A DNA stretch of 64,000 bases. Origin: Verrucomicrobiota bacterium. GTDB lineage: Bacteria > Verrucomicrobiota > Verrucomicrobiia > Opitutales > Cerasicoccaceae. How positions within the stretch are numbered: position 1 is the first letter of the stretch; every line of letters starts with the position of its first letter. Position numbers and translations under genes: made by a program. The DNA lies in the NCBI GenBank assembly GCA_039818205.1, contig JBCBUK010000001.1, positions 320,001 through 384,000 of the forward strand, in the 5' to 3' direction. This document shows positions 12,687 to 49,071 of the stretch, one piece after another. Under the pieces are notes generated by a model that did not search any database, was not told the DNA's origin, and saw nothing but the letters and a program-made list of their open reading frames with translations.

Positions 12687-12691
12687 AGACT

Positions 12692-13870: not shown

Positions 13871-13873
13871 GGC

Positions 13874-24342: not shown

Positions 24343-24366
24343 TCAGTCGATGGGTATTTTCCGCGT

Positions 24367-25506: not shown

Positions 25507-25508
25507 AG

Positions 25509-26822: not shown

Positions 26823-26843
26823 AATTAAGTTGGCCTGAATTCA

Positions 26844-28939: not shown

Positions 28940-29415
28940 TTGAGTCCTCCCTTCCACCATTTATATGAGAACGCCAGGCTTACAACCAGAAGACCGGACC
29001 GCAGCGGCCAGCCATTTCCTGGAATCTCGCGCGCAAGCCACCCAGTCGCGGGTAGCCATGAGAGCATTCCCGCTAGCCACAGCCACTTCCAAAATCCACC
29101 GGAGACCTGACCACCAACCGCCAAACCCAACGCCACGTGACGCGCGATATTCAGCGAGCCAAATATGCCAATCAGACAGGACAAAAGAGACAAAATCAAC
29201 AAGATGAAGTCAGGCTCCCAGCGCCCAGTTCGGATCTGCCTAGTCAAAACCGCAATGAGTGGAATCAGCCAAATGAGAAAAATCCAAACGGATCCCCGGG
29301 CATAAACATCGCTCTGCCAAATATCCGACAAGTTGCGAGCTGACCAAATACACAAACCGAGGACAAACAGGCTGGGCGCCCATGATTGACTATCCAAGCG
29401 CTTCGACTGATTCAT
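28936..29415 (-). CDS. Membrane protein resembling the N-terminal TM half of an exosortase (no catalytic residues)
   Basis: About 5 TM helices; 'LSDIWQSDVYARG' resembles the exosortase W..D..Y.HG motif; overlaps both neighbours. Confidence 0.55.
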   Translation of the reverse strand: MNQSKRLDSQSWAPSLFVLGLCIWSARNLSDIWQSDVYARGSVWIFLIWLIPLIAVLTRQIRTGRWEPDFILLILSLLSCLIGIFGSLNIARHVALGLAVGGQVSGGFWKWLWLAGMLSWLPATGWLAREIPGNGWPLRSGLLVVSLAFSYKWWKGGLK

Positions 29416-32107: not shown

Positions 32108-32194
32108 GATAAATGGTTAAAAGAAATGCAGAACAATTTCAACATTTGCCTTTAGTAATTGCCCAAAAGTTTGAGGGCTTATATCCGATTATCA

Positions 32195-33031: not shown

Positions 33032-33060
33032 TGAGATAATTGTTTACATAAATTTAACGG

Positions 33061-34566
33061 TTATTGGGTCATACTCTTAAGTAGTTTTCGTGAAAACCAT
33101 ACCCAGGGAACACCACAAAGCGCCCCTCGCCAGCCAAGCGACCACACACCACCATCGGACGGCATCGGGAATGCAAAAACCAATACGGCGAGAACCAATC
33201 CGAAACTTCCTAATGCCCAGAGAGTTCCGTCGAGATGAAACGCCAGGAAGTTACCGAGCTTAAGCTCAACCGCTCTCAGAGTGATTGGAATAACAAAAAA
33301 CCAGCCAACCACTGCCGTCGGTATTAAAGTACCCAAAGCGACTCCTAAAATCCCCAAAGAAAACACCAAAGCGAAGCTGATGGCGACATTGAGAACCGCA
33401 TCGATGACCGACAAACGTAGTAACACCTTCTCATGGCCAGTCATCATGAGAATGCGCTTGGTGCAGCTGTTGGTTAGTTGAGAACTATATATCGCCAATA
33501 GTAGTGCCTGGCCGACCCAGAACGCTTCGGCGGGCACCGTTTCAAGACCGGTTAACAATCGAATCAAGCCATCAAGATATACTGCTGAAAGCACATAGGC
33601 CGGTGTTACAACCAACAGCGTTAATCGCGAGCTACGCAACAGCAACTCGCGCAAACCAGCCTCATCACCACTCGCTTTCAATTGCGCCGCTGCGGGCGAT
33701 AGCGCCGATTGCAGTTGCACGCTAAACAGGTTCAGCATTTCGCCCATTTTGAAACCAGCCTGGTAAATCGCGACGGCGGCGACTCCCACCGTTAAGCTGA
33801 TTACCAGCTGATCACTCTTGGCCATGATCAAGTTGCTGAAGGTAATCAGATAGGCCGCAATAGAGAAACTCATTTGGGCTTTTACCGCCCTCCATTCGAA
33901 CAGCTTCGGTGCCAGGGAAAGCTGCTTGATCAAGCGAAAGGCGAAGAAAGCGGCGAAGATATTGGGAATCAAACTCGATACCACGCTGATCGCCATCAAG
34001 GCAGGAAATGGCCACTCTAAGGCAAGAGCTGTGACAATCACGGAAAAGTGGAGTACGGTGTTCCCCACCCCAACCCAGTTCGCTAAATCGATTCGTTGCA
34101 TTCCTCGCAACACTTCGGGAAACAACCCGAGCGGAAACGTCAGGGCCATGCCAATAAAGAAAATGACGTATGCGCTGCTGAATGCATCCCAGTCGTTGGC
34201 CGAGACCGAAACCGCCTCCATAAAGTATGGGCGCAGAAGAATAAAAACTGTCACCAAACCGACCGCCAGGCCAACGAAGGTCCAAAAGATTGTTGATAGC
34301 AGGCGATTCAATCCGGCGTAATCACCCTGAGCCATCTTCTCGGCGACTGCTTTCTGGGCGGTGAAACCAAATCCAAAATCCAGCAAGACGCCGTAACCAA
34401 ACAAAGACCAAAGCAAAGACCAGAAACCAAACGCTTCTTCGCTTAAACCGCTAAACAGTTGGCGAAATAGAATCAAACCAAGGACCAGGCGCAGAACCAC
34501 CTGCACATAGCTGCTACCCGTATTCGCCCAAAAGCGACGCTTCCATTCCGGCTTATCCACCGGCAA
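33061..34566 (-). CDS. Wzx-like oligosaccharide flippase
   Basis: About 14 TM segments, 'LLDFGFG', 'SDQLVI...VAIYQAG'; EPS context. Confidence 0.85.
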   Translation of the reverse strand: MPVDKPEWKRRFWANTGSSYVQVVLRLVLGLILFRQLFSGLSEEAFGFWSLLWSLFGYGVLLDFGFGFTAQKAVAEKMAQGDYAGLNRLLSTIFWTFVGLAVGLVTVFILLRPYFMEAVSVSANDWDAFSSAYVIFFIGMALTFPLGLFPEVLRGMQRIDLANWVGVGNTVLHFSVIVTALALEWPFPALMAISVVSSLIPNIFAAFFAFRLIKQLSLAPKLFEWRAVKAQMSFSIAAYLITFSNLIMAKSDQLVISLTVGVAAVAIYQAGFKMGEMLNLFSVQLQSALSPAAAQLKASGDEAGLRELLLRSSRLTLLVVTPAYVLSAVYLDGLIRLLTGLETVPAEAFWVGQALLLAIYSSQLTNSCTKRILMMTGHEKVLLRLSVIDAVLNVAISFALVFSLGILGVALGTLIPTAVVGWFFVIPITLRAVELKLGNFLAFHLDGTLWALGSFGLVLAVLVFAFPMPSDGGVWSLGWRGALCGVPWVWFSRKLLKSMTQ

Positions 34567-35683
34567 CCTCCCGATAGACTGCCTCGCACTGTTCGGCGAC
34601 CAGGTCCCATCGATACTTAGCTGCCCATTCTCGTCCCATCGCGACCCGCTCAGCTCGCTCGCTCTGGCTTAGGCTGCCCATCTTGCCAAGGGCTTCAGTC
34701 ATCGATTCTACCGACATTGGATCGAACTCAATCGTCGCTGGCCCGTTAACTTCAGCGAGGCTTGTCGCGTGTGACGATACAGCCATCGTCCCACAGGCCT
34801 GGGCTTCAATGACCGGGAAACCGAAACCCTCCATCAATGACGGAAACACGAGCGCCTCGGCTGCCGCATACCAAAGTGCGAGTTCATCATCCTCAATGAA
34901 ACCCGCCATCCGAATCGAACGCTGATGCTTCGACGCTTCCCAAGCGGCATCAATTGCTTCCTTACCATGCCAAGGCGCACCACCGAGAACCAAGTCCCAG
35001 TCCAAGCCACTGGATTCGCGAAACCGACCAAAGGCTTCGATCAATCGCACATGGTTTTTTGCCGGATGTTCAAAACGGGCGATGTAAATTAGATACGGCT
35101 TCGTCAGCTGATGTTTGATCCGAAACGTGGATAACGAGTCTTCATTCGCCGGCCGAAAACGCTCATGGTCGATTCCGTTCGGAATAACTCGCAGGCGATC
35201 AGCGGAAACTCCGAGGTAGTTTTTAATATCCTCACCTGCCGTCGCGCTCACCGCAATCACGCGATCCATGCGACGAGCGATCCAAGGAACGACCTTCCTG
35301 CCGAAAAAGCCCCGAAGCGCATCATACTTCTCCGCCAAGATGAATGGCGCACAGTCGTGTATCGTGGCAACCTGCGGAGCGGAGCTTCGAACGACCATCC
35401 GCCGATAGCTTGGGATGTGAACAACATCGAAGTCTCCTTTTTTGATAATTCCCGGAAGGACCGCCTGGTGCCAAAGCAAATTCACCGCCCCGCTGCTGGC
35501 CTTCGGGTGAATGCTTACCCAGCGATCATCTGCGATCCAGGGAAACAGTGAGCGATCGGAATCCAGGCCAACAATAAAGACATCGATGCCGCGGGTGCAG
35601 AGGTGTTGGCTCAGCGCGATGACATAGCGCCCAACACCGGAACGCCCCCCTTGGACCATGCCGGCTGAGAGTAACAGCTTAAT
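34553..35683 (-). CDS. GT4 glycosyltransferase (start uncertain, possibly ATT at 35683)
   Basis: 'SGVGRY', 'ATIHD', 'HPAKN', 'FPSLMEGFGFPVIEA'. Confidence 0.88.
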   Translation of the reverse strand: MKLLLSAGMVQGGRSGVGRYVIALSQHLCTRGIDVFIVGLDSDRSLFPWIADDRWVSIHPKASSGAVNLLWHQAVLPGIIKKGDFDVVHIPSYRRMVVRSSAPQVATIHDCAPFILAEKYDALRGFFGRKVVPWIARRMDRVIAVSATAGEDIKNYLGVSADRLRVIPNGIDHERFRPANEDSLSTFRIKHQLTKPYLIYIARFEHPAKNHVRLIEAFGRFRESSGLDWDLVLGGAPWHGKEAIDAAWEASKHQRSIRMAGFIEDDELALWYAAAEALVFPSLMEGFGFPVIEAQACGTMAVSSHATSLAEVNGPATIEFDPMSVESMTEALGKMGSLSQSERAERVAMGREWAAKYRWDLVAEQCEAVYREVAGG

Positions 35684-37160
35684 GAGCTGCCCCTCCTGCT
35701 GCGGGCTCCAACAAGAACTCTTGCAACCGCAAAAGCTTGATGACGTACCGCAGTTGCTCACTTGGATCGACAATCAACAAACTACCATTGCGTTCGAGCA
35801 TGCGTCGGCGCGCCATCAGCAATGCCGTCACGCCATTACTATCAATGAAGTTCACGGCCGAGCAATCGATCGCTAGAGTCCGTGCTCCAGGATCAGCCTC
35901 AATCAATGCATTTAGCTCAGCGGACAACTGCTTCACGTTGGAACGGTCGATCGTATCGATCAATTCGTAGCGTATCGTTATCGGTTCTTCGCCCTCGTCA
36001 CTGTCAGTGGCTGGGGTGATCTCAGATAATGATGCTTGAAATACGTTCTCATCGCTGAAGAAACGAAACAGAGAATCGAGCCGAACCGCCTTCAGCGCAC
36101 TCATCACGCTTTCCGAAGGGGACAACAATCCGAATGCTTGATTCCGTTCTCGGGCTTGACGGGCAAGCTTGGCCAGTGCGCCCATGCCCGCACTATCCAT
36201 AAAATCAACCTCACTGAGATCGAGTAGCACTGGCTGCTTCCAGTCCTCTGGTTGCGGTAGGTCGTCAACGTTCACCCGCTCAGCGGCTCCTTTCCAAGCC
36301 AACCGCTGAATTGCAACCGACTTGGACGGCAGTGGCTCAGCACTTGGTAGGCTAGCGGGTCGATTCGTTGAACGCCGGCGTTTGGACAGCCATTGTTTCA
36401 TGGTAACCCAACTGAGAAAAAAGAAATCACGTGCGTATCGGCTAAAGAGTCGTTTGGGGTTCGTGCCCATGCGCCAGAGCCATTCCATCCCAGTCTTTTG
36501 CATCCAGATCGGCGCTCGTATCTGCTTTCCTGATATGAAGTCCAGCGACGCACCAATACCGATTCCGAGCGACGCTCCCGTCTCCTTAAAATACTGGTAG
36601 ATCCATTCCTCCTGCTTTGGACAGCCCAAAGCGACGAGCAATACATCCGCATTGGCCGCACGCACCCGCCGCACGACCGCTTCGTTGTCCCACTCGTGCA
36701 CCTGACCCATTGGCGGAGATTCGAACCCAACGATATCCAGGCCAGGCATCCGCTGGCGCAAGAGCTCCACGACCTCACCCAAAGCCGTGTCGTCACTTCC
36801 AAAGAAGTAGACCTTGCTGCCGATCTGAGCACTGAGCTCCAAAAGCTTAGGCGTTAAATCCGAACCCGCTACCCGCTCCCGCAAAGGATGACCCAGAATC
36901 TTGGAGATCCAAATCAACGGCATACCGTCGCAAACAACTCGTCTCGCATAAAATAGGATACGACGCAGTTCTTCGTTCTCAAATGCCTGGGCGGCAAAGT
37001 CGACGTTCGCCGTTACGAAATAAGCTGGCTTGCCGGTTTCCAATACGTGTCGGCATTCCAACAAGGTTTCCTCCATCGTCAAATCATGGAAGGGCAAACC
37101 CAACAACACGGCGATCGGCGGTTCGTGGTGAGAGTCGCTGCTATCTGGTTGAGAGCTCAT
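35679..37160 (-). CDS. WecB/TagA/CpsF (GT26) glycosyltransferase fused to two C-terminal STAS domains
   Basis: GT26 motifs 'TANVD', 'CDGMP', 'ERVAGSDL', 'VALGCPKQE', 'RAP', 'EWLWR...PKRL..RY'. STAS motifs 'DLSEVDFMDSAG' and 'DCSAVNFIDSNG'. Confidence 0.9.
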   Translation of the reverse strand: MSSQPDSSDSHHEPPIAVLLGLPFHDLTMEETLLECRHVLETGKPAYFVTANVDFAAQAFENEELRRILFYARRVVCDGMPLIWISKILGHPLRERVAGSDLTPKLLELSAQIGSKVYFFGSDDTALGEVVELLRQRMPGLDIVGFESPPMGQVHEWDNEAVVRRVRAANADVLLVALGCPKQEEWIYQYFKETGASLGIGIGASLDFISGKQIRAPIWMQKTGMEWLWRMGTNPKRLFSRYARDFFFLSWVTMKQWLSKRRRSTNRPASLPSAEPLPSKSVAIQRLAWKGAAERVNVDDLPQPEDWKQPVLLDLSEVDFMDSAGMGALAKLARQARERNQAFGLLSPSESVMSALKAVRLDSLFRFFSDENVFQASLSEITPATDSDEGEEPITIRYELIDTIDRSNVKQLSAELNALIEADPGARTLAIDCSAVNFIDSNGVTALLMARRRMLERNGSLLIVDPSEQLRYVIKLLRLQEFLLEPAAGGAAH

Positions 37161-38370
37161 TAGAGGTTCGTAGTCGTTGGAGTTTTTGGATGAGTCGCTC
37201 GCCAAGCGCTGCCCAGGTATAGGTATCCAGCACTTTAGAACGTCCCGCACTAGCGAGTTTTCGCCGCAAACTTGCGTTGTCGATTAGCTGCACACAGGCA
37301 TCGGCAAAATCAGCGGCGCTATCGGCTAGGAGCAACTCGTGGTCATGGTCCAAATCTAAACCTTGTGCACCCAAGGTCGTCGAAACGACCGGATTAGTCA
37401 TCGACAAGCCTTCGACAATTTTTAGGCGCGTCCCGCCGCCAATGCGCAGTGGAACGACCTGCATCCAAGCCTTTTGATAAAAAGGGCGCACATCGGGCAC
37501 CTCCCCTTCGAAAACAACCCCTGGCTGCTTCGCATACGCCTTGACCTCTTCGGTCGGATTCTTGCCAACCAAAATGAGTTGGTAGTCGGGTCGCTCACTC
37601 AAAATGCGATGATGGATTTCGTCAAAATACCAACGCATCGCGTCCGTATTAGGCGTGTAATCAAGCGCACCGCAAAATAAAGCGCTGGGATAGACGGTTG
37701 GCTCCGGTGGCCACTCAGTCGCATCGAAAAAATCGGTATTGGCACCGTTGGGCAGAACATAAACTCTTTCGGGCAATCCCAAGCGTTCATCGAGGAAATC
37801 CTTGTCTTCGAGACCGCAAACCACCTCGAGCGAGATCTGTTGGATTACCTCGCGCTCAGCCCGAGCAATTTTCATGAGATTCTCACGACGCATGAATCTG
37901 CCCCAGGCCGTGTCGTTCAGCGTAGCCAACTCCTCCCGTTGAAACAACCAGTCGACGCGGCTCCGATCCATCACCAGACAATTATGGTCCGCGAAAAACC
38001 GTTTCACGTAGGGCCACAAAACGATATCGACCCAGAAGATACAGTCATAAGACTGACCGGAAACAAACTCACCAAGTGCCCGCTCAACATCCGGTGAATA
38101 CCAATGCCGGATGGTGGTCGGCTGTGGGTTCCAGACACGATCTGTCCAGAAAGACGGCCAAGGCGGGTGTTGGAAGTCAGAAAACTCGACCCGCTCACAC
38201 ATTGCCTGGAATCGATCAAGTTGTTCGTGATCCTCGGGTTCAGTAGACAGGCAAAAGAGATCGACCGAAAATGCCTCGGCCAGTTGCTCGGTCAAGTGAA
38301 ACACGCGCTGGAAAGTGCCCCGGCGAATGGGAAACGGAACGTATGGTAATATGACCAGCAACCGCTTCAT
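37141..38370 (-). CDS. GT4-like sugar transferase (PEP-CTERM/EPS-associated type)
   Basis: 'PYVPFPIRRG', 'GALDYTPN', 'VPLRIGGGTRLKIVEG'. Confidence 0.88.
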   Translation of the reverse strand: MKRLLVILPYVPFPIRRGTFQRVFHLTEQLAEAFSVDLFCLSTEPEDHEQLDRFQAMCERVEFSDFQHPPWPSFWTDRVWNPQPTTIRHWYSPDVERALGEFVSGQSYDCIFWVDIVLWPYVKRFFADHNCLVMDRSRVDWLFQREELATLNDTAWGRFMRRENLMKIARAEREVIQQISLEVVCGLEDKDFLDERLGLPERVYVLPNGANTDFFDATEWPPEPTVYPSALFCGALDYTPNTDAMRWYFDEIHHRILSERPDYQLILVGKNPTEEVKAYAKQPGVVFEGEVPDVRPFYQKAWMQVVPLRIGGGTRLKIVEGLSMTNPVVSTTLGAQGLDLDHDHELLLADSAADFADACVQLIDNASLRRKLASAGRSKVLDTYTWAALGERLIQKLQRLRTSNELSTR

Positions 38371-38374
38371 TGTC

Positions 38375-39466
38375 TTAGCTATAATAGCCCCACCATACTT
38401 CGTAAATATTATAGATGGCGTTCCACTCCGTATTTTCTATCGGCAGGTTCTTGCCAACCTGAACAAAATCCGGCGTTTCAGCATTCAATTGAACCAGCGC
38501 TCTCATCAATGCCCCTCGCGGATAATCGGTATAGGGCTGAAGAGCGGCCCCACGCTTGAGCCGATCACGCAGCGCCAATGCAAGGCAACGCAACGGCGAT
38601 TCATCGGGGAACAAACGCTCATTTGCCTTCGCGTATTGGTCGGCACTTCCGAAACTCCTTCCCAGACGCTCACCTTCAACTGCCAAATAGACATCCAACC
38701 ACAAAGAACGCAGCCGATCGTTTTGCCCTTTGAGGTCAAGGGACATCGGTGGCTCGACCGGGCGCTGCTTGAAGTCAACGCCCGTTGCATGTAGTTGACG
38801 AATTTCATCAGTAAGCAGCGGGTGCTCAAGCGCAGCAACCAACTGTTTACGGGTCTCACAGAACGCATTGTGTTGGCCTGATATACATAGAACTGCATCG
38901 CCCAACGCCAAAGCGAGTTTCATGTGTTGACGATAAATGAAATCCTCAGCGCCCGAAACTTCCAACTTGCACCGAGCGAAAAACAAGCCACTACCGCGGT
39001 TCCACAAAAGTCGCGTCGCTTCAACTTTGTGTATGAGTTTGGGATCCATTTTCGAATGCCATTTTGCCAAGTAATCATCGGGACCCACGACAACCAGATG
39101 TCCCATGATCAAATCGTGAAACATCATGGAGGATTCTGCGTTTTTGAGATTTCCAGGAGACACGCAGGTTACCTCGACATCGATTGACAAAGCCTCGCTT
39201 TCGGTCCGCTCAAACGCCTTTACTCGCTTTCGCAAAGCGTCGTCTTCCGGGCTCTCCGTAAAGAGAAAATAATCGAGGTCATTAAACAATTTAGGCGTAT
39301 CGCCATCAACGAATACGCCCCCTTCACCGCGGCCATAGCCGCCACCCAAGACTAATGCCTCTATTGATGTAGATTCGTCAGTATCAAAGTAGGCTTTTGC
39401 ACGCGCAATGTGTTCTTCCAGTTGCTTCAACAGGGAAGAAAATGTCCCGTTGAAATAGCGCGCCAT
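38375..39466 (-). CDS. Hypothetical protein with pol-beta-like nucleotidyltransferase motif
   Basis: 'LVLGGGYGRGEG' followed by 'NDLDY' (DxD) and a later acidic strand 'DVEV'; helical C-terminal half. Confidence 0.6.
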   Translation of the reverse strand: MARYFNGTFSSLLKQLEEHIARAKAYFDTDESTSIEALVLGGGYGRGEGGVFVDGDTPKLFNDLDYFLFTESPEDDALRKRVKAFERTESEALSIDVEVTCVSPGNLKNAESSMMFHDLIMGHLVVVGPDDYLAKWHSKMDPKLIHKVEATRLLWNRGSGLFFARCKLEVSGAEDFIYRQHMKLALALGDAVLCISGQHNAFCETRKQLVAALEHPLLTDEIRQLHATGVDFKQRPVEPPMSLDLKGQNDRLRSLWLDVYLAVEGERLGRSFGSADQYAKANERLFPDESPLRCLALALRDRLKRGAALQPYTDYPRGALMRALVQLNAETPDFVQVGKNLPIENTEWNAIYNIYEVWWGYYS

Positions 39467-39469
39467 ATG

Positions 39470-39781
39470 CTAATTCTCTAAATTAAATACTGTGTTCAGG
39501 CGAAGGAGCTCAACGACACTGAGCACCTCAGGGCTAAGGTTGGTCAGCGATAGCGGTCGAACACCCCCACGAAGAGAGTTGTTCAAATGCAGAAGCGCGC
39601 CCAGCCCCGAGCTATCAATAAACGCAAGTCCAGAGCAGTCGACGACGACCTTCCCAGCTTGCGGAAGATCGAGCATTCCAAGCTCCTGTTTGAACTCTGC
39701 TGCATTCGCCGCCTCCAAATGGGAAGTCTTTAATTGGATAACGAATGCCTCACTTTGTTCTTGGGTCTCAAATAATGGCAT
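39470..39781 (-). CDS. Stand-alone STAS-domain protein (anti-anti-sigma/SypA-like)
   Basis: 'LEAANA', 'VVVDCSGLAFIDSSGLGALL' with the phosphorylatable Ser. Confidence 0.92.
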   Translation of the reverse strand: MPLFETQEQSEAFVIQLKTSHLEAANAAEFKQELGMLDLPQAGKVVVDCSGLAFIDSSGLGALLHLNNSLRGGVRPLSLTNLSPEVLSVVELLRLNTVFNLEN

Positions 39782-39880
39782 AGGGCAAAAACGCTTAGAA
39801 TAAAAACTATCAATAAATCACCATTCTTTCCTTGGCAATGCAAGCTTAGAGATATTAACTATATAGAAACCTTAGCAACC

Positions 39881-40609
39881 ATGGCGGATGATGAAATTCA
39901 CCCCACACTGAATCAATTTTGGTCAACCCAGGAAGGCCAAAGTGAAATTCTCAAGTGGCGAAAAAACATGCGTCGCAAAATTAGTTTTTGGCGACTAACG
40001 ATCGCGTTCAGCCAAACGAGCAAACGCGTTCTCGATATCATTGGTTCCGCAGCGGCCCTCATCGCATTCTCCCCGATTTTCGCGATCACGGCGATCCTGA
40101 TAAAATTGGAAGACCGGGGGCCAATATTTTTCTCTCAGACTCGGGTTGGAGAAGCGGGCCGAGCATTCCAATGCTTCAAGTTTCGCTCAATGGTCGTTAA
40201 TGCCGATCAGATCAAAGAAAAGCTAAGTGAACAAAATCAGCACGACGACGGGGTCACCTTTAAAATGAAAGACGACCCGCGGATAACGAAAGTCGGCAAG
40301 TATATCCGCAAACTGTCCATCGACGAATTCCCTCAGTTCTATAATGTATTGCGTGGAGACATGTCACTCGTCGGACCGCGCCCACCGGTTCCGAAAGAAG
40401 TCGCCGAATACAAGGCCTTTCACCTGCGTCGCCTCATGGTTAAGCCCGGCATTACCTGTCTGTGGCAAATTGGCGGCCGCGCGGATATCGACTTCGAAGG
40501 GCAAGTGCGTCTCGATCTCGAATACATTGGATCCCAGAATCTCAAACAAGACCTACACATACTACTGAAGACCGTACCCGCCGTTATCCTCGGTAAGGGT
40601 GCCTACTAG
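39881..40609 (+). CDS. Priming phosphoglycosyltransferase (bacterial sugar transferase)
   Basis: 'KRVLDI', 'FKFRSM', 'DPRITKVG', 'SIDEFPQFYNVLRGDMSLVGPRP', 'KPGIT'. Confidence 0.93.
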   Translation: MADDEIHPTLNQFWSTQEGQSEILKWRKNMRRKISFWRLTIAFSQTSKRVLDIIGSAAALIAFSPIFAITAILIKLEDRGPIFFSQTRVGEAGRAFQCFKFRSMVVNADQIKEKLSEQNQHDDGVTFKMKDDPRITKVGKYIRKLSIDEFPQFYNVLRGDMSLVGPRPPVPKEVAEYKAFHLRRLMVKPGITCLWQIGGRADIDFEGQVRLDLEYIGSQNLKQDLHILLKTVPAVILGKGAY

Positions 40610-40614
40610 CTACA

Positions 40615-41760
40615 ATGAGTCACCTCGTTACTGAAGCAGCTACCTTATCACTGGTCTGCCCGGACTGGTTTTACCTGGAACACGAGCTCAAATTGCCGGA
40701 CCCCTTTGTGCTCTGGCCCGTAGGCGACCAACCCCTGCTCTACCATTGGTTCGATTATGCCTTGGACCAGGGCTACAAATGTGTCCGAATATTTGTTACT
40801 GATCGGCCGGATCGCGTGCGCGAAGCCGTTAACCAAGCCACGCTTTGGCCGATAATGCTAGAGGTGGTCACGGTTTCTCAATCTCGCGAAGACGACGGTG
40901 TGGTAATAGGCGGCCTGCCGGATGGCGAAGCCTTGGCCCTTCCGGAAAACGAATGGGACATACTCAGGCACTGGCAAAAGATGGATTCTGATTGGCTTCG
41001 GATGACCGAAGATGAGTCTTTGAAAGTCAATCTGTCTGTCGGTCGCCTCTGTCGAATTCACCCAACGGCCAAACTGGTTGCGCCCTACCTTATCGGTGAT
41101 CACGTCGCAATCGGCCCAGGAGCAACTATTGGACCCAACGCTGTTGTTGGCAGCGGCTCGATGGTCGCGGAGGATACCGTCGTAAAAAACGCGCGACTGA
41201 TGCCGCATAGCTTCCTCGGAGCCCACCTGACACTTGAGAAAGCAATCCTCTATGGACGGGTACTCTTCAATTGCAAACACCGCGCACGAATCGAACGGAT
41301 CGAATCCTTTATCGCGGACTCGGTGATTCCTCGCAATGATGCCCCACCCTGGTCCGAACGAATTGTTGCACTCGGCTACTGGATCCGTTTTCAGTTCATC
41401 CTAAAAGTCGGCCTCGCAAAGAAAAGTCCCCGCATCACGCTCAACGGCAAAAGCTATCCTGGTCCGGTCAATCCACCCTTATGGGCCGAACGTCTTCCCC
41501 GAATCTGGGAGGTCGTCTGCGGGCGCATGCGCCTATTTGGGCCCTTGCCACGATCCGACGAACAGCTCGAGCAGATACCGATCGATTGGCGCCCCATTCT
41601 CCGCGAAGCCATCCCCGGCGCCATCGCCTACAGCGATTGCCTTGGCTGCCACGACCCCAATGACCCAACGGAAGCCCTTCACGCGGTTTATCAAATCACG
41701 CATCCGGAGCAAACCCAGCCCCAATGCGAATACTTTCTCAAACAGCTAACCCACCACTAA
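40615..41760 (+). CDS. Fusion of NDP-sugar-synthase-like, hexapeptide (LbH) and degenerate sugar-transferase domains
   Basis: 'LWPVGDQPLLYHW', LbH 'IHPTAKLVAPYLIGDHVAIGPGATIGPNAVVG', C-terminal 'LPRIWEVVCGRMRLFGPLP'. Confidence 0.65.
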   Translation: MSHLVTEAATLSLVCPDWFYLEHELKLPDPFVLWPVGDQPLLYHWFDYALDQGYKCVRIFVTDRPDRVREAVNQATLWPIMLEVVTVSQSREDDGVVIGGLPDGEALALPENEWDILRHWQKMDSDWLRMTEDESLKVNLSVGRLCRIHPTAKLVAPYLIGDHVAIGPGATIGPNAVVGSGSMVAEDTVVKNARLMPHSFLGAHLTLEKAILYGRVLFNCKHRARIERIESFIADSVIPRNDAPPWSERIVALGYWIRFQFILKVGLAKKSPRITLNGKSYPGPVNPPLWAERLPRIWEVVCGRMRLFGPLPRSDEQLEQIPIDWRPILREAIPGAIAYSDCLGCHDPNDPTEALHAVYQITHPEQTQPQCEYFLKQLTHH

Positions 41761-41769
41761 GGAACATCT

Positions 41770-42303
41770 ATGAAAGGTATGGTATTCACCGAACTCTTGG
41801 ATATGGTCGAAGATAAGTTCGGCATCGATATGGTCGATAACATCATTGATGACGCCGATCTGCCCGTTTCCAACGGTTCTTACACGGCGGTAGGCACCTA
41901 TCCGCACGAAGAAATTGTCTCACTCGTCATGCAACTCAGCAAGCATAGCGGGATCTCTCCCGACGGTCTGCTAAAAGTATTCGGAGAGCACCTTTTCGCC
42001 CGTTTTCACAAGGGCTACCCCCACTTCTTCGAAAGCGCGACGGACGCCTTTTCGTTCCTACAAAACATCGACCAGTATATTCACGTTGAGGTCCGCAAGC
42101 TCTACCCCGATGCCGAGCTACCAAAGTTTGACTGTGAACTAAACGAGAATCAGCTAAAGATGACCTATTCTTCGTCTCGTCATATGGAAGACTTCGCCGA
42201 AGGGCTGATACAAGGCTGCCTTAACCACTTTGAAGAAGAAGCCGATATTGCTCGGGAACCGGTCGATGACAATACAACGGTCTTTCTCGTGACCCATCGC
42301 TAG
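41770..42303 (+). CDS. H-NOX (heme NO-binding) sensor protein
   Basis: 'MKGMVF', 'YTAVGTYP', proximal His in 'IHVEVRKLYPDAELPKF', YxSxR motif 'YSSSR'. Confidence 0.92.
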   Translation: MKGMVFTELLDMVEDKFGIDMVDNIIDDADLPVSNGSYTAVGTYPHEEIVSLVMQLSKHSGISPDGLLKVFGEHLFARFHKGYPHFFESATDAFSFLQNIDQYIHVEVRKLYPDAELPKFDCELNENQLKMTYSSSRHMEDFAEGLIQGCLNHFEEEADIAREPVDDNTTVFLVTHR

Positions 42304-42319
42304 ACGGTGGGCAGGTTGA

Positions 42320-44740
42320 ATGAGTGACGAAAGCGACAAGTGGAAACGGCGCTACGAGCGCGAACGGAATGCCCGTAAGCAGGCCGAACAACTGCTCGAA
42401 GAAAAGTCGCTCATGCTCTACGAGAAAAACGTCGAGCTCGAGAAACTAAGCGCACAGCTCGCCGAAACCGTAGAACGGCGAACGGAGGAACTTCGTTTTT
42501 CGACCAGCAAACTGCGCGAGCAGGAGGAACGAATGTCGTCACTCGCCGAGACCTTCCCCGGCGTAATCTTCCAATGGGTCGAACGGAGCAACGGTGAATC
42601 TGGCTTCAACTACATGAGCCCACGCGTCGAGAAGATCTTCGGGTTCAGCGCTACCAACGCGATCAAAGATTGGCACCGGATGCAGATTCACTACGACGAT
42701 GTGCCCGCGTGGCAGGAGTCGATAAAAGAAGCTCTCCAATCGATGTCGGAGTGGCGGTGCACCGGGCGTCTGGTCACACCCAGTGGAGAAACCAGGTGGT
42801 GGCAAGGCTACGGCAAACCGTTAAGAGTGTCGGAAACCGAGGTCGCCTTCAACGGAGTCTTTCTCGACATCAGCCAGCAGAAACAAATAGAAGCGCAGAT
42901 TCGCCGGCTTTCATTGGTCGCAAGCCGAACCATCAATGGCGTCGTCATTACCGACGAGAACGGTCGTGTCGTGTGGATCAACGAAGCTTTCGAAAGAATT
43001 ACCGGATATACTCTCCAAGAACTCCGCGGACGTAAACCCGGCGAGCTCCTCCAGGGACCATTAACTTGCCGGAAAACAATCAAATACATCGGAGAGAGGC
43101 TTAAGGAAAAACAGCCGCTTACAGCCGAACTCCTAAACTACCACAAAAACGGTGAGACCTATTGGCTGCGCCTCGACGTAAACCCGCTCTTCGACGAAAA
43201 AAATCAGCTCACGAATTTTGTGGGCATCGAGACAGACATTACCAAGCAAAAGGAAACGGAGACTGCTCTGAAACTGGCTTCGGAACATGCGCAGGAAGCC
43301 GCCAAGGAAGCCAATCGAGCCAACCAGGCAAAAAGCCGTTTTCTCGCCAGCATGAGCCACGAGATCAGGACACCGCTGAACGGGGTCCTCGGCTATACAC
43401 AGGTCCTCAACATGAGGGATGACCTACCCGAAGATGCTGCCGGCATGATCGAGTCCATCGGACGCAGCGGAGAACACCTGCTTCATCTGATTAATGATAT
43501 TCTCGACATTTCAAAGATCGAGGCGGGCAAATACGAACTGACCGGTGGCGATGTCCTCTTACAAGAGATTTTACGCGACCTGCTGGACATGTTTAGCCCG
43601 AATGCTGAGCTAAAATCGATTCGCTACGATTGCGTTTGTTGGGACTTTGAACGCGACACGCCACTAGCGGACGATAACTTCTACTTCCAAGCCGACGCCC
43701 GTGCCTTACGGCAGATCCTCCTAAACCTGGTCGGCAATGCGATCAAGTTTACTAAGCGCGGGCACGTCCTAGTCAAAGCAGGTCCGGATTCCGCATCATC
43801 ACTCAAGTTTATCGTCGAAGATACCGGAGCTGGAATCCCTGAAGAAGACCACCAACGAATCTTTGAAACCTTTGAGCAGTCCAACCAAACGAACAGCAAA
43901 GTTGCTGGAACCGGTTTGGGTCTGCCAATCTGTCGAAAGCTGGTTGGCCTCATGGAAGGCAGCATGCGTCTGGAGTCAGAAGTCGGCAAGGGATCTCGAT
44001 TCTCGTTCGATATTCCTTATATCAAGCCGAAAGAAATTCACTCGACCTATGTTCCTGTCCAAAAACTCCAGAAGGTTCACTACGTTGGACCGAAGAAAGA
44101 CATTCTTGTTGTCGATGACGATGAGCACAGCCGCCGGGTTACCAAGGAGCTACTGATCGCAGCCGGTTTCCGGGTTACCTCGGTCTCCTCCGGCGAAGAC
44201 GCACTCCACCATCTTTCACGCGAAATCCCTGACCTTGTCGCCACGGACTTGCTAATGCCAGAAATCGATGGCTTCGAACTGCGCCACCGGATCCGCGTTA
44301 CCCCAGCAATCCAACACCTACCCGTGATCGCGGTATCCGCCAGCGTCATGCAATCAGCCGAAAATGCGAGCCGCCTGAAGCCGTTTGCAGGCTTTATAGC
44401 CAAGCCCGTCAAAGCGGAAGATCTGTATCGACAGGTCGGCGAGGTTCTTGGTCTTGAATGGCAAACACCGAAATCGGAAGAAGAACAGCCTGATGATACT
44501 GAGATCTCACCTTCACCGCCCCTGGAAAAATCAATTCCGGATCGACCAGTACTCCAATCGCTCCTTGTCCTCGCCGAACAGGGTGATATGTTTGGACTAC
44601 AAAGCCAGATTGCTGAGATCCGCGAGGACTCACAGGAGCATTCCGAGTTCTATACCCAACTGCACGACCTCGCCGCCAGCTTTCAAAGCCAGGCGATCGA
44701 GGACCTTCTCAATGACTGTCTAGCCAATCACAAAGCATGA
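42320..44740 (+). CDS. Cytoplasmic hybrid histidine kinase (coiled coil-PAS-PAS-HisKA-HATPase-REC), H-NOX-associated
   Basis: 'SHEIRTPLNG', 'NLVGNAIKFT', 'DTGAGI', 'GTGLGL', REC 'VVDDD..DLLMP..KP'; N-terminal 'RRYERERNARKQAEQLLEEKS'. Confidence 0.93.
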   Translation: MSDESDKWKRRYERERNARKQAEQLLEEKSLMLYEKNVELEKLSAQLAETVERRTEELRFSTSKLREQEERMSSLAETFPGVIFQWVERSNGESGFNYMSPRVEKIFGFSATNAIKDWHRMQIHYDDVPAWQESIKEALQSMSEWRCTGRLVTPSGETRWWQGYGKPLRVSETEVAFNGVFLDISQQKQIEAQIRRLSLVASRTINGVVITDENGRVVWINEAFERITGYTLQELRGRKPGELLQGPLTCRKTIKYIGERLKEKQPLTAELLNYHKNGETYWLRLDVNPLFDEKNQLTNFVGIETDITKQKETETALKLASEHAQEAAKEANRANQAKSRFLASMSHEIRTPLNGVLGYTQVLNMRDDLPEDAAGMIESIGRSGEHLLHLINDILDISKIEAGKYELTGGDVLLQEILRDLLDMFSPNAELKSIRYDCVCWDFERDTPLADDNFYFQADARALRQILLNLVGNAIKFTKRGHVLVKAGPDSASSLKFIVEDTGAGIPEEDHQRIFETFEQSNQTNSKVAGTGLGLPICRKLVGLMEGSMRLESEVGKGSRFSFDIPYIKPKEIHSTYVPVQKLQKVHYVGPKKDILVVDDDEHSRRVTKELLIAAGFRVTSVSSGEDALHHLSREIPDLVATDLLMPEIDGFELRHRIRVTPAIQHLPVIAVSASVMQSAENASRLKPFAGFIAKPVKAEDLYRQVGEVLGLEWQTPKSEEEQPDDTEISPSPPLEKSIPDRPVLQSLLVLAEQGDMFGLQSQIAEIREDSQEHSEFYTQLHDLAASFQSQAIEDLLNDCLANHKA

Positions 44741-45843
44741 ATCAGTCTACCAAAGCCACTATTCTTGTTGTTGATGATAACGCAACCAACCTAGCGGTTG
44801 TTTGCACCCACCTAACCAAACAAGGGTTTCGTATGCTAACGGCTGAGAGCGGACCCAGTGCCCTCAGGCGACTCGATCATATTTCTCCAGACATGTTGCT
44901 CCTGGATGTCATGATGCCTGAGATGGATGGGTTTGAACTCGCACAAAGGATTCGCGAACGCGAGGACTACAACAACCAGCCAATCATCTTCATGACCGCG
45001 CTCGACGACATGAACAGCAAACTCCAAGGCTTTGCCAGTGGAGGCGTCGATTACATCACGAAGCCCATTCAGCATGAGGAGATGATCGCACGCGTTCGCA
45101 CTCACCTCGAAGTCCATCAGCTCCGGGTCGCATTGCGCAGAGAAAACGAAAACAAGGATCAACTCATCGCTGAGCTCGAAGCATACGATATGACGGTCGC
45201 GCACGACCTAAAGAATCCCATCGGTGCCATTGCCAGTGCCGCCGAAACCTTCGAGATGATGGATGACCTGACCAACGATGAGGCCAAAGAAATCATCGAG
45301 TTGATCCGAATGGGAGCCGATCAAGCACAAAACATTATCAGAGGACTTCTATCGTTTGCTCAGCTTCGCAGCGGCGAGGCTCAACGTTCGGAGGTCGACA
45401 TGGATCAGCTCGCTCGGGAATGCATTGAAACCTTGCACAGCCTTTCTGCCGAAAGCGGTGCCTCAATCGAGATCGACGGTGAGTTACCCGCGGCCTATGG
45501 TTACGCTCCGTGGTTAAGTGAAGTGTGGTCGAACCTGATCAGCAACGCGATCAAGTATGGTGGGCACCCGCCCATCATCACGATCAAGGGAGAAACATTG
45601 GAAAAGAACGTACGCTATTGCGTTGCCGACAATGGCAGTGGACTCCCTGAAGATCGCACCACCCTCTTTAAGCCGTTTTCTCGCGGAACGAGCGCCCACA
45701 CCGAGGGAACCGGGCTGGGCCTTTCCATCGTCGAACGCATCATCCGGCGCCACGAAGGTTCGATCCTCGCGGAAGACCGACCTGGCGGTGGCGCAGCAAT
45801 GACGTTCTACCTACCTAAGACCGACCGCAACCATGCTGAATAA
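44737..45843 (+). CDS. REC-HisKA-HATPase hybrid kinase/response regulator
   Basis: 'VVDDN..LLDVMMP..TKP', 'AHDLKNP', 'NLISNAIKY', 'DNGSG', 'GTGLGL'. Confidence 0.92.
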   Translation: MNQSTKATILVVDDNATNLAVVCTHLTKQGFRMLTAESGPSALRRLDHISPDMLLLDVMMPEMDGFELAQRIREREDYNNQPIIFMTALDDMNSKLQGFASGGVDYITKPIQHEEMIARVRTHLEVHQLRVALRRENENKDQLIAELEAYDMTVAHDLKNPIGAIASAAETFEMMDDLTNDEAKEIIELIRMGADQAQNIIRGLLSFAQLRSGEAQRSEVDMDQLARECIETLHSLSAESGASIEIDGELPAAYGYAPWLSEVWSNLISNAIKYGGHPPIITIKGETLEKNVRYCVADNGSGLPEDRTTLFKPFSRGTSAHTEGTGLGLSIVERIIRRHEGSILAEDRPGGGAAMTFYLPKTDRNHAE

Positions 45844-47551
45844 GGAGCAATACATCATTGATCAAAGTACGGTAACGGTTCAACAGGTGCGCGTCCGGGC
45901 CTCATTGGAAGCCGTTCATCCTGTTCGAGAAATGTTTGTTGCCTATTTGGAGTCAGTTGATGTGTCTGCCTCCGAGATCGGCGGTTGGAAGCTGGTATTT
46001 ACAGAGCTACTCAACAACGCCATCATCCATGGTTCTGGTGAAAATGATTCGGAATCAATTGAGATCGAATGGTCGTTGAGCAACCGGGCGATTCAGCTTT
46101 GCATCGAAGATCCGGGGACTGGGCCAACAAAAAGTCAGGAGATTGAAGCAACGCTGCCCGAGAATCCTGAGCAGGACCACGGACGAGGCCGATTCATTAT
46201 CCAGTCTTTCGCCGACCGGGTTGCGGAATGGAGAACAACCAACGGGTTTCGAATCGAAGTCGAGAAAGGGTGTCGGGAATCCGGAGGAATCGAACCACCA
46301 TCCGAAGAGATGGAGGCCATTCTCAAAGAACTATCCGCCAGCTACGAAGGCCTTGCCGCATTCTATCAGCTGAGTGAGTCGCTGGTCAAATCAGACACTT
46401 TGAGCATCCTGCTGGACCAAAGTCTGCGCAATGTACGGGAAAGCATTGTGCTCGACTACCTTTGCATCTTCCCGATGTCTGATTTGCCGCCCTTCATCCA
46501 AACTCAGTTTAGACAGGTCGCTCAGATCATTGATGATGTCCCAACTCCAATTCACGGTCTTCTGCAGCGCAAGTGCGAGATCGTTTGGGAAAATCCGGAT
46601 CAGCAAGCCGCTCTCGATGCTGGAGTAAATCCGATCGCCGAGTTTAGCTCAGGATGCTTGCTGCCAATAACCTCGGAAGAAAACTTCTTCGGTTTACTCG
46701 CCGCAGGACGCCGCCGCGGCTCAAACCAAATCGTGTCCTCACAAGTCAACAACCTGCGTACGTTCGCTGATATTTTTGGAATTGCGATTGCCAATTTCAT
46801 TTCCACAACGATCCGGCACGAAGCAGAAAAAGACTTACGCGAATTCGAAATCGCCGCAGAAATCCAACAACACCTGCTGCCAATTCGGCAACCAATCGAA
46901 CCCATGAAACATGAGGTTCGAGTGTTTCAACGAGTCGCCCAGAATGTAGCGGGCGACTATGCTGAATACTGTCAGGATAGGCTAGGCAACCACTACCTAA
47001 CCATTATCGACGTCATGGGCAAAGGCGTGTCGGCGGCAATGCTCGGAATTCTGTACCGAGCCGCCCTCAATCTACTCCTAAGCACACCCAAGCCACTGCC
47101 CGTCATGCTTGAGCAAATCGGGCGCGTCCTCAATTTCATGTTGGGTGATCTAACGATGTTCATCACCGTGACGATTCTGCGTTGGAATGACGAAGTCGAC
47201 ATGATCGAACATGTCAACGCAGGCCATTGCCCGACGGTTAAAATATCTGAAGATGGAACCATCCAACAATTTGAGCCCTCTGGTCCGCCAATTGGATTGT
47301 TGGCCGAATACCGCTATGAGAGTGACACCATTGAGATGGAACCTGGGGATCGCGTCATTTTGGTTTCGGATGGATGCTATGAATGGAAGACCAACGATTC
47401 GATATTCGGGTGGGAGCGATTAATCGACCTTATTAGAGAAGGTAACCACCCTCACGGCGCTCAGCTCTGGCACGCGCTTTGCCAAATAATGGACCTAGGC
47501 CCCAATGGCGAGGAACCCGCCGACGACATTACCCTCGTGTTTCTAAAGTAA
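45833..47551 (+). CDS. Bifunctional RsbW-like Ser kinase - GAF-like - SpoIIE/PP2C phosphatase
   Basis: Kinase motifs 'ELLNNAIIHG', 'EDPGTG', 'HGRGRFII'. PP2C motifs 'VAGDY', 'DVMGKG', 'NAGH', 'SDG', 'DDIT'. Confidence 0.9.
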   Translation: MLNKEQYIIDQSTVTVQQVRVRASLEAVHPVREMFVAYLESVDVSASEIGGWKLVFTELLNNAIIHGSGENDSESIEIEWSLSNRAIQLCIEDPGTGPTKSQEIEATLPENPEQDHGRGRFIIQSFADRVAEWRTTNGFRIEVEKGCRESGGIEPPSEEMEAILKELSASYEGLAAFYQLSESLVKSDTLSILLDQSLRNVRESIVLDYLCIFPMSDLPPFIQTQFRQVAQIIDDVPTPIHGLLQRKCEIVWENPDQQAALDAGVNPIAEFSSGCLLPITSEENFFGLLAAGRRRGSNQIVSSQVNNLRTFADIFGIAIANFISTTIRHEAEKDLREFEIAAEIQQHLLPIRQPIEPMKHEVRVFQRVAQNVAGDYAEYCQDRLGNHYLTIIDVMGKGVSAAMLGILYRAALNLLLSTPKPLPVMLEQIGRVLNFMLGDLTMFITVTILRWNDEVDMIEHVNAGHCPTVKISEDGTIQQFEPSGPPIGLLAEYRYESDTIEMEPGDRVILVSDGCYEWKTNDSIFGWERLIDLIREGNHPHGAQLWHALCQIMDLGPNGEEPADDITLVFLK

Positions 47552-47554
47552 GTC

Positions 47555-47923
47555 ATGAAAGAGATAATTGTAGTCGACGACGACATCACGATGATACGCC
47601 TGCTTCAGTTGCATTTGCGCCGGGCGAAAATCAAAGGGCACTACTTTCAATCTGGCCAACAGTGTTTACAAGCCGCCGCCGGGATAAACGCAGACCTTGC
47701 CTTGCTCGACTACGACCTGCCCGACACCAAGGGCACCTTGCTAATGAGGTCCCTACGCGAGATTCCAGGCTACGAGGAGCTGCCGGTGCTCATTTTCACC
47801 GCACGAACCAGTAGTGAATTACTTCCCAAGATCAAAGAGTCCGGGGCGAACACCGTCCTTTCGAAACCCTTTAGCCCAACCCACTTGATCCGCCAGATCG
47901 AGAGCTTCCTTACCCAAGAGTGA
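47555..47923 (+). CDS. Single-domain response regulator (CheY-like)
   Basis: 'VVDDD', 'LLDYDLP', 'FTA', 'SKPF'. Confidence 0.92.
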   Translation: MKEIIVVDDDITMIRLLQLHLRRAKIKGHYFQSGQQCLQAAAGINADLALLDYDLPDTKGTLLMRSLREIPGYEELPVLIFTARTSSELLPKIKESGANTVLSKPFSPTHLIRQIESFLTQE

Positions 47924-49059
47924 AATCACGCGTTGACTGTTTTATCTTTGCTGACGCCCTAGGCTGGAAACTCGCCCAGGAGCGAAACTTCTTGGACGAC
48001 TTGTTACCCGTTCGTTCTCCGGCGCAAACGCTGTTTGGGTACTCGTCCACGTGTGACCCGACGATTTTGACCGGCGCCCTCCCTTGTGACCACGGACATT
48101 TTTCCTTCTTTGTTAAGGCGGATAACGACTCACCCTTTAAGGGTCTGGGTAGGTTCGGATTCCTACCGCAAAAGATCGCCGGGCACCACCGCATCCGCAA
48201 TCGTGTCAGCCGATACTACGCCAAAGCGTTAGGATACACAGGCTATTTCCAACTCTACAGTGTCCCGTTTGGCCGCTTACCTTACCTCGACTATACCGAG
48301 AAAAAGGACATTTATGAACCGGGAGGAATCATCGGAGGACAACCAACCATCTTTGAGTTTTGGGAGGAATCCAAGAAGCCTTGGCTACGCTCTGATTGGA
48401 GGGCTGGAGACGCGGCGAATTTGGCTCAAGCCAAGCAGGCACTAGAGAAAGGCGACATCGAGCTACTCTATCTCTTTACGGCAGGTCTCGATGCCACCAT
48501 GCATCGTTACGGTCCGAGTGGACCCGAGGTCGATGCAGCCTTCGACCAGTTTGCCAGCGAGCTTAGGCAGTTGCACGCTATTGCTTCCAAACACTACCGC
48601 GAAGTTCGACTTCATTTGTTCAGCGATCACGGAATGGCGAAAATCACTACGGCTTCCAACATGCTAAAGCGCTGGCCCGAGATCGACCTGCGATACGGAG
48701 AGGACTATGTCGCCGTTTGGGATTCAACCATGGTCCGCTTTTGGTTCAACAATGACCGCGCCCGAGACATTACAGCCGGCTGGTTGCGAGCCCAACCCGA
48801 TGGAAAAATCGTTACCGACAAAGAACTCGCGGCGGGCGGTTGTCTCTTTCCTGAGAGGCAATATGGTGACCTCTTCTATCTGTTACCAGCTGGCAGCCTA
48901 TTTGTCCCCTCATACATGAACCTAGGTTTCGTCAAAGGAATGCATGGCTATGACCCAGCCCATGAAGACAGTACCGCCTGTTGGCTAGCGACTCACGAGA
49001 CCCTACCTGTAAAAAGTCTCACCGATATCTACCCCGTCATGCGCGCCGCCGCGCAATAA
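47920..49059 (+). CDS. Alkaline phosphatase superfamily protein (nucleotide pyrophosphatase/phosphodiesterase-like)
   Basis: 'FADALG', 'GYSSTC.PTILTG', 'LDATMH', 'FSDHGM', 'GMHGY'; no signal peptide. Confidence 0.8.
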   Translation: MKSRVDCFIFADALGWKLAQERNFLDDLLPVRSPAQTLFGYSSTCDPTILTGALPCDHGHFSFFVKADNDSPFKGLGRFGFLPQKIAGHHRIRNRVSRYYAKALGYTGYFQLYSVPFGRLPYLDYTEKKDIYEPGGIIGGQPTIFEFWEESKKPWLRSDWRAGDAANLAQAKQALEKGDIELLYLFTAGLDATMHRYGPSGPEVDAAFDQFASELRQLHAIASKHYREVRLHLFSDHGMAKITTASNMLKRWPEIDLRYGEDYVAVWDSTMVRFWFNNDRARDITAGWLRAQPDGKIVTDKELAAGGCLFPERQYGDLFYLLPAGSLFVPSYMNLGFVKGMHGYDPAHEDSTACWLATHETLPVKSLTDIYPVMRAAAQ

Positions 49060-49071
49060 CAGATTCAAACC

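Follow-up and report, generated by a model that had tools for sequence, protein, structure and literature searches.

A candidate nitric oxide-responsive partner switch with STAS domains fused to a GT26 glycosyltransferase in an exopolysaccharide locus of Verrucomicrobiota

Organisation of the locus

Positions 320,001 to 384,000 of contig JBCBUK010000001.1 (assembly GCA_039818205.1), a stretch of 64,000 nucleotides from a Verrucomicrobiota bacterium of the family Cerasicoccaceae that is referred to here as the window, were analysed with respect to a putative partner switch embedded in an exopolysaccharide (EPS) locus. The locus encodes a switch enzyme that joins an RsbW-type Ser kinase to a SpoIIE-type PP2C phosphatase, a free STAS protein and a GT26 glycosyltransferase (GT) carrying two further STAS domains. 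An H-NOX protein, the candidate sensor of nitric oxide (NO), and two kinases are encoded upstream of the switch gene (Table 1). Across related genomes the conserved unit is the partner switch and not the NO sensor.

The gene layout around the divergent gap, which a sequence-only reading of the window had described, was verified by open reading frame (ORF) listing combined with Pfam and NCBIfam scans. The EPS/PEP-CTERM setting that it had proposed was confirmed through the exosortase, EpsI-like and PEP-CTERM genes; the exosortase scored above cut-off for PF09721 and a PEP-CTERM motif was found at residue 246 of the protein encoded at 32195-33031, which identifies such a system. The remaining leftward part of the locus further holds two Wza proteins, a Wzc-like protein, three GT4 enzymes, a Wzy-like protein, a Wzx-like flippase, an unannotated membrane ORF and a TPR protein. 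The first ten rightward genes are spaced by -11 to +16 nt. Catalytic residues were intact in all signalling proteins of the locus. The closest named homologues came from Cerasicoccus species (60-62% identity).

Table 1. Features of the EPS locus in the window (positions are those of the window).
Feature	Position	Strand	Remarks
Rest of EPS/PEP-CTERM locus	20304..35773	-	Pfam/NCBIfam
GT26 (WecB/TagA/CpsF) glycosyltransferase with two C-terminal STAS domains, 493 aa	35679..37160	-	Pfam above cut-offs; start is the ATG agreeing with database protein P0003
GT4 glycosyltransferase	37141..38370	-	TIGR03087-like, under cut-off
Unnamed conserved protein, 363 aa	38375..39466	-	kept in 26 aligned loci
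Free STAS protein, 103 aa	39470..39781	-	Pfam; Ser57 in FIDSSG
Divergent intergenic gap, 99 bp	39782..39880		AT-rich (33% GC); promoters inferred
Priming phosphoglycosyl transferase (PGT; Bac_transf), 242 aa	39881..40609	+	D148-E149 intact
Hexapeptide-repeat (LbH) protein	40615..41760	+	degenerate C-terminal PGT-like domain
H-NOX, 177 aa	41770..42303	+	PF07700
Hybrid kinase	42320..44740	+	coiled coil-PAS-PAS-HisKA(H347)-HATPase-REC(D643)
REC-kinase	44737..45843	+	REC(D57)-HisKA(H156)-HATPase; intact in window copy
Switch enzyme	45833..47551	+	RsbW-type Ser kinase, GAF-fold middle, SpoIIE-type PP2C
Single-domain receiver	47555..47923	+	D52, T82, K104
NPP-type phosphodiesterase, CBS-domain pyrophosphatase, GT4, GT2, GT4	47920..54021	+	same operon, inferred from spacing

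A divergent promoter had also been placed in the gap. The divergent orientation stood and the gap is AT-rich, but the word promoter is drawn from gene orientation only, because the gap yielded neither a listed sigma-70-type site nor a match to the sigma-54 pattern. A promoter scan of 35000-54500 returned 15 sites, compared with 12.6 +/- 3.0 in shuffled sequences, and none of them fell in the gap. Roughly 25 bp within 39820-39850 were conserved in four same-genus genomes; this candidate regulatory site matched neither sigma-70 nor sigma-54 patterns.

The LbH protein ends in a domain with E-R in place of the D-E pair of the neighbouring PGT. Its profile matched PglC (8G1N, E 3e-6) and, at 100% probability, an NTP-transferase-LbH-PGT protein of an Anaerolineae locus. 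The protein is accordingly described here as a candidate pseudo-enzyme that may act as a regulatory partner of the PGT.

The switch enzyme and its receiver

The kinase domain of the switch enzyme scored above cut-off for PF13581, with E58, N62, D93 and G117-R-G present, and the phosphatase domain matched PF07228 with D375, D393, D513 and D564-D565. The motifs of both domains were invariant or nearly so across 33 aligned homologues. For the kinase part, the family profile matched the structures of SpoIIAB and RsbW, and the PP2C part gave fold matches to SiaA-PP2C and SpoIIE. By sequence, the locus holds the RsbW-type kinase, the SpoIIE/PP2C phosphatase and the STAS loop serines by which a partner switch is recognised.

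The RsbW-GAF-PP2C layout had been proposed for this enzyme, and Pfam supported its kinase and PP2C parts directly. No Pfam match to GAF was obtained for the window enzyme at E<=0.01; the GAF assignment comes from homologues, 5 of 6 of which matched GAF models, and from the family profile, which matched solved GAF domains over positions 164-317. The monomer model (predicted template modelling score, pTM, 0.55) does not fix the arrangement of the domains. SypE of Vibrio has the layout kinase-REC-PP2C, where REC denotes a receiver domain. Membership of the SypE family was considered and rejected as the middle region is GAF-like without a REC match, and PF00072 was found in 0 of 95 homologues; GAF stands where SypE has REC.

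Loci from other genomes were annotated with hidden Markov models made from the fetched sequences, and 54 switch-bearing loci were tabulated, with probable duplicates and two partial loci left out. A receiver gene lies directly 3' of the switch gene in 51 of these 54. By analogy, the lone receiver is likely the trans-acting counterpart of the internal REC of SypE. In one genome (G013), a stand-alone switch gene (L201:9301-11030) lies in two ORFs, one with the RsbW part and one with the GAF-PP2C part, through either a split or a frameshift.

The GT26 enzyme and the STAS domains

The GT26 enzyme scored above cut-off for PF03808 and TIGR00696, and D78, E226, W227, R230, R237 and R241 are the equivalents of the TagA catalytic residues. 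In an alignment to TagA (7MPK), D78, R230 and R237 aligned with D65, R214 and R221, and R241, which is invariant, fell one residue off R224. A model of the GT26-STAS-STAS protein (predicted local distance difference test score 86.7, pTM 0.73) gave Foldseek matches to TagA and to SpoIIAA/RsbV. Pfam, alignment and model all agree on a GT26 enzyme with two STAS domains, as previously read.

The predicted phosphorylation-site serines, Ser57 in the free STAS protein and S323 and S441 in the GT26-fused domains, are all present, and the kinase and phosphatase are likewise intact, in line with the sequence-only reading. In alignments, the phospho-column was occupied by Ser in 56/56 free STAS proteins, in 59/60 first and 57/59 second STAS domains of double GT26 fusions and in 16/23 single-STAS fusions; these are counts of distinct sequence stretches, a few of which overlap and represent one and the same gene. 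Where a single fusion lacked Ser (seven cases), no switch gene was seen in its stretch. In GT26-STAS-STAS proteins of Pontiellaceae/Kiritimatiellales (L079, L082 and related L072-L088) the first STAS domain mostly reads NSLE.

The tail of TagA is reported to complete the active site and to bind the membrane (PMC8784642). The STAS pair of the window enzyme is placed after a TagA-type tail and would therefore offer a possible route for control of the GT26 domain.

Conservation of the switch unit

Conservation was evaluated in 43 EPS-linked loci, all from Verrucomicrobiia, a set in which linkage is favoured because the loci were picked from GT26 and switch matches. The receiver gene was directly downstream of the switch gene in 40/43, a PGT was found upstream in 40/43 and LbH in 37/43, a free STAS gene was present in 40/43 and GT26-STAS in 33/43, with one more cut by the region edge. 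In 13/43, an H-NOX gene lay no more than 10 kb from the switch gene. The signalling block, H-NOX and their neighbours keep this order in five relatives belonging to the same family (G001, G002, G005, G008 and G010), which argues against a chance arrangement; Wza, Wzc and GT4 genes are rearranged in two of the five. In the co-occurrence check proposed with the sequence-only reading, covering H-NOX, switch, STAS and GT26-STAS, synteny was conserved, in that the switch unit was retained and H-NOX was present in a minority.

Outside the family, ten Akkermansiaceae-type loci have the order seen in the window with LbH abutting the switch gene and the sensor slot empty. Their switch enzymes nest among slot-bearing ones at weak support values (82 and 90). 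Three genomes (G063, G042 and G072) hold a minimal run of PGT-STAS-STAS-switch-REC-GT26/STAS/STAS that is followed by a sigma-54 activator. In the Anaerolineae locus PGT, GT26-STAS-STAS and STAS are found together with separate RsbW and PP2C genes.

A class-wide sample of 401 genomes was then used, with three candidates scored per genome, and 40 genomes contained a GT26 match at E<=1e-45. The switch was searched for in 37 of these, the window's own genome and two short matches being left out. A full-length switch enzyme was found in 31 of the 37 genomes with a long GT26 match as compared to 3 of 60 controls, so that the expected co-occurrence of switch enzyme and GT26 fusion was observed; no p-value is attached because kin are not independent. 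Among the 20 of these 37 genomes that had not contributed to the profile, the switch was found in 14. In the three switch-positive controls GT26 was present without a matched STAS part.

H-NOX and the sensor slot

The H-NOX protein matched PF07700 (E 1.4e-44) with H105, P118 and Y133-S135-R137 all present. Phe142 occupies the distal site at what we take to be the position of the O2-binding Tyr. Of the 401 genomes of the class-wide sample, 32 had an H-NOX: 12 of the 32 with both GT26 match and switch and 20 of the other 369. In 8 of the 32 genomes with GT26 match and switch, no more than 10 kb separated H-NOX from the switch gene. An H-NOX cassette is present in the locus, as the sequence-only reading had it, and the NO sensing predicted for it is an optional input.

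The 13 switch-linked H-NOX loci span five families. A tree of 34 H-NOX proteins resolved two deep clades (support 100/100), with the linked proteins of families f1 and f27 in one clade and those of G104, G404 and G414 in the other. The latter share 22-27% identity with the window protein, and their partners are HNOBA kinases or a FIST protein. A single origin of the 13 linked copies was tested as one clade and rejected (p-AU 1.7e-5), and NO sensors have therefore been recruited at least twice. The same slot is filled by GAF/PAS kinases in G374 and L057, and by a REC-kinase alone in G164. From these patterns the sensor slot would be an exchangeable input, occupied more than once by a putative NO sensor.

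Further arrangements were seen around H-NOX. In G414 (L140:15023-19998), H-NOX, a FIST-FIST_C protein, presumably of NosP type, a kinase and a REC-HPt protein lie upstream of PGT-LbH-STAS-switch. In G234 (L143:12833-13531) a STAS-REC fusion is found where other loci hold STAS, switch enzyme and REC. At L196:1711-12854 the H-NOX gene is oriented divergently to another kind of EPS cluster, which comprises PGT, GT26-GT2-GT4 and Wza and is accompanied by a sigma-54 activator, and H-NOX was found near surface-glycan genes in several further genomes.

The phosphorelay and the genome background

No match to the histidine phosphotransfer (HPt) model PF01627 was obtained in the locus, and the tail of the hybrid kinase was rejected as an HPt domain on this account. 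Signalling from a hybrid kinase requires a relay through His, and with no HPt found in the locus the His of the REC-kinase is proposed for this role. Among 12 REC-kinases at the slot the H-box His was kept in 12/12. Five members, that of the window and those of 4 relatives, had an intact ATP domain; the domain was missing by deletion from G008 and degenerate in 6 others, the seven losses being those of L035, L119, L121, L124, L127, L130 and L133, and the REC Asp was replaced by Asn in 4/12. Retention of His upon loss of the ATP domain in 7/12 suggests a phosphotransferase role resembling that of ChpT. A role as phosphatase or sink is an alternative, and the intact REC-kinase of the window could, by analogy, work like LvrB.

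The genome contains one H-NOX, 11 STAS matches and 6 SpoIIE matches. A second RsbW-GAF-PP2C enzyme is encoded on contig C20 (L001:3673-6515), with a divergent STAS gene, then REC and HPt genes, and without EPS genes; the adjoining REC and HPt tie this enzyme type to His-Asp relays. Modules like this stand-alone paralogue were found at 10 other loci. The description of the window's circuit as self-contained and wholly co-located could not be upheld, given the missing HPt, the paralogous switch with its STAS, REC and HPt, and the RpoS-like and FliA-type sigma factors of the genome. Together with the sigma-54 activators, these mean that further potential partners exist for the components of the locus.

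Proposed mechanism and alternatives

In the mechanism that we propose, the RsbW-GAF-PP2C enzyme would phosphorylate and dephosphorylate Ser in the free STAS protein and in both GT26-fused STAS domains, and STAS phosphorylation would switch early steps of EPS synthesis with no sigma factor involved. The H-NOX cassette would be one exchangeable input to the switch enzyme. NO-bound H-NOX is predicted to inhibit the hybrid kinase, phosphate would pass from that kinase via the His of the REC-kinase to the lone receiver, and the receiver would set the kinase/phosphatase balance of the switch enzyme in trans. If the sign is as in Vibrio and Anabaena, STAS phosphorylation would correspond to the off state and NO would reduce synthesis. 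The direct observations are the domains, their intact motifs, the order of the genes, co-occurrence and repeated sensor recruitment, from which each phosphotransfer, the substrates, the ligand and the sign of the NO effect are predicted.

We consider it quite probable that the switch acts on the STAS domains of this locus and controls EPS. That the H-NOX cassette feeds this switch is reasonably likely, and we lean towards the GT26-fused STAS domains being functional substrates. The entire chain, in which NO acts through H-NOX, kinase, His relay and receiver, and Ser phosphorylation of free and GT26-fused STAS domains gates EPS synthesis, is given an even chance. The wider generalisation is tentative: a sigma-independent switch across Verrucomicrobiia in which a lone receiver steers the kinase-GAF-phosphatase in trans and the latter phosphorylates the tandem-STAS tail by which GT26 is gated, in which NO sensors of two distant H-NOX clades were wired in independently, and in which the intervening kinase has been turning into a ChpT-like phosphotransferase.

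Several observations weigh against this mechanism. The loci were chosen via GT26 or switch matches, with limited flanks and among non-independent kin. A D-S motif belongs to the general STAS signature, and Ser conservation is therefore consistent with phosphorylation and not proof of it. Eleven stand-alone switch loci lack EPS genes, with REC in 11/11 and an adjoining STAS gene in 9/11, and the switch enzyme occurs in genomes without any GT26 (G009, G013). Conversely, 6 of the 37 GT26-STAS genomes, one of them complete, gave no switch match, and GT26-STAS genes of Pontiellaceae are not part of EPS clusters, the two annotated copies being neighbours of secA-tilS-ftsH. As to the NO input, H-NOX was not found in 20 of the 32 genomes with GT26 match and switch and was unlinked to the switch in 4/32; G013 has the H-NOX-kinase-REC-kinase cassette without GT26, and G234 has H-NOX in the locus of a genome in which the switch enzyme was not found.

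An output of the SypA kind, in which the free STAS protein is the working substrate and controls the PGT and pseudo-PGT while the GT26-fused domains serve as docking modules or secondary targets, is unlikely in our estimate. PGT and free STAS (40/43 each) and LbH (37/43) are more tightly associated with the switch than GT26-STAS (33/43), and several loci form one run of PGT-LbH-STAS-switch-REC; contig ends and region limits nevertheless explain part of the lower GT26 count, and minimal loci lack LbH yet have GT26-STAS-STAS. Ser was kept in only 16/23 single-STAS GT26 fusions, whereas both serines of the double fusions are nearly invariant. Cyanobacteria are described as fusing STAS to the same transferase family (PMC13555669), which would fit a PGT target.

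A transcriptional output is improbable. Here the kinase would sequester an unlinked sigma factor, or the relay would end on a sigma-54 activator, as that of HahK does on SypG, the STAS domains being antagonists. The earlier statement that the locus holds neither a sigma factor nor a DNA-binding regulator was borne out by Pfam/NCBIfam for 20304-54021, the nearest DNA-binding regulator being an OmpR-type gene at 5951-6628, and no sigma-70 region-2 match was obtained in 41 stretches around the switch gene. This lack of a regulator is not general because sigma-54 activators sit in many related loci, which counts against sigma-independent control of the STAS enzymes; one is found inside the locus in family f27 and one directly after GT26-STAS-STAS in f32. 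The genome itself has 27 sigma-70 region-2 matches, including RpoS-like and FliA/WhiG-type factors, and five sigma-54 activators, and the Leptospira LvrA-LvrB-LvrC pathway is described as ending in a REC/RsbW-fold protein for which an anti-sigma role has been proposed (PMC13269768). The fusion of STAS to an enzyme would however be hard to account for by sigma control alone.

There is equally little probability that the H-NOX cassette, though transcribed with the locus, acts on another target such as the HPt by the stand-alone paralogue or motility, with the EPS switch using other inputs: an HPt adjoins the paralogue and none was found in the locus, G013 has the cassette without GT26, the slot is empty in Akkermansiaceae-type loci and a core EPS gene lay within 9 kb in only 10/27 fetched H-NOX loci, but in two families the cassette immediately precedes the switch gene and overlaps with it, H-NOX proteins of another clade were separately placed near the same switch, and 10/27 (selection favoured linked loci; lower bound 10/32) stands against 5% of random positions and 2/34 other kinase genes in this genome.

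Other features of the window

The ORF at 38375-39466 carries an LGGGYGRGEGG...NDLD motif that we liken to those of pol-beta nucleotidyltransferases; profile searches of PDB and Pfam returned nothing useful for it. Its family travels with the NPP phosphodiesterase in these EPS loci and perhaps performs a donor-activating or polymer-modifying step. Elsewhere in the window, 1889-5067 encodes a GoxA/GoxB pair of CTQ-dependent glycine oxidase type, both above NCBIfam cut-offs, and 9284-14686 an Ebo-type cluster with EboE above cut-off and DHQ-synthase-like, TatD-like and NPP genes. A large repeat protein (>1900 aa) with a weak haemagglutinin-repeat match occupies 57972-64000 and continues past the window end.

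Comparison with known systems

The HnoX-HahK-SypF-SypE-SypA circuit of the Vibrio fischeri syp locus (PMC12369376, PMC8256260) shares with the window an H-NOX by a hybrid kinase, a bifunctional Ser kinase/phosphatase and a STAS protein in a polysaccharide locus. Control is post-transcriptional there and predicted to be so here, and the target of SypA is described as unknown (PMC8256260). In the window all parts can share one operon, the receiver is a separate gene, GAF takes the place of the REC of SypE, SypF/HPt and SypG are missing from the locus and two extra STAS domains are fused to GT26.

In Anabaena PCC 7120, the All4160/Alr3423/HenR partner switch was reported, as late as 2026, to act directly on a STAS-fused polysaccharide enzyme (PMC13555669; bioRxiv 10.64898/2026.04.08.717354). 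Partner-switch enzymes, STAS fused to a polysaccharide biosynthetic enzyme and a receiver-linked phosphatase, implying an upstream kinase, are common to both systems. The report describes an N-terminal STAS domain on Bac_transf, separate kinase and phosphatase and an input that is not known, and calls the system lineage-specific. The window, from another phylum, has tandem C-terminal STAS domains on GT26, a single enzyme that unites kinase and phosphatase, and a candidate sensor encoded in the operon. All4160-type membership was rejected for the window PGT, which has Bac_transf as the only domain in its 242 aa and no fused STAS, STAS being found on GT26 instead.

For the relay, Leptospira LvrA-LvrB-LvrC likewise runs from a kinase via a REC-controlled kinase to a receiver associated with an RsbW fold; in LvrC, a proposed sigma binder, REC and the RsbW fold are joined in one protein (PMC13269768), whereas the window REC is free. 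The slot REC-kinases differ from the LvrB type in that relatives have a second kinase whose ATP domain is lost. In Caulobacter, ChpT is described as a phosphotransferase with a kinase-like fold, the His kept and no working ATP site (PMC3433190), a pattern matched by the degenerate REC-kinases of the seven relatives; that of the window differs in its intact ATP motifs and N-terminal REC. TagA (PMC8784642; PDB 7MPK) has the fold and catalytic residues of the window GT26, which adds ~210 residues forming the two STAS domains after the membrane-binding tail.

Among the matches listed in a literature search that covered subscription journals thinly, there was no paper on this system in Verrucomicrobiota. 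If the proposed mechanism is true, direct partner-switch control of a polysaccharide enzyme extends to another phylum and enzyme family, and the priming transferase, the pseudo-transferase and GT26 become candidate targets for SypA-type proteins. Sensor, relay, switch and candidate targets lie in one operon that could be rebuilt in vitro, and the mechanism predicts which serines are modified, control of the kinase-GAF-phosphatase by the free receiver and NO turning matrix synthesis off. Both halves of the circuit have a precedent, in HnoX-HahK-SypE-SypA of Vibrio and in All4160 of Anabaena; the GT26 family, the phylum and the wiring are new.

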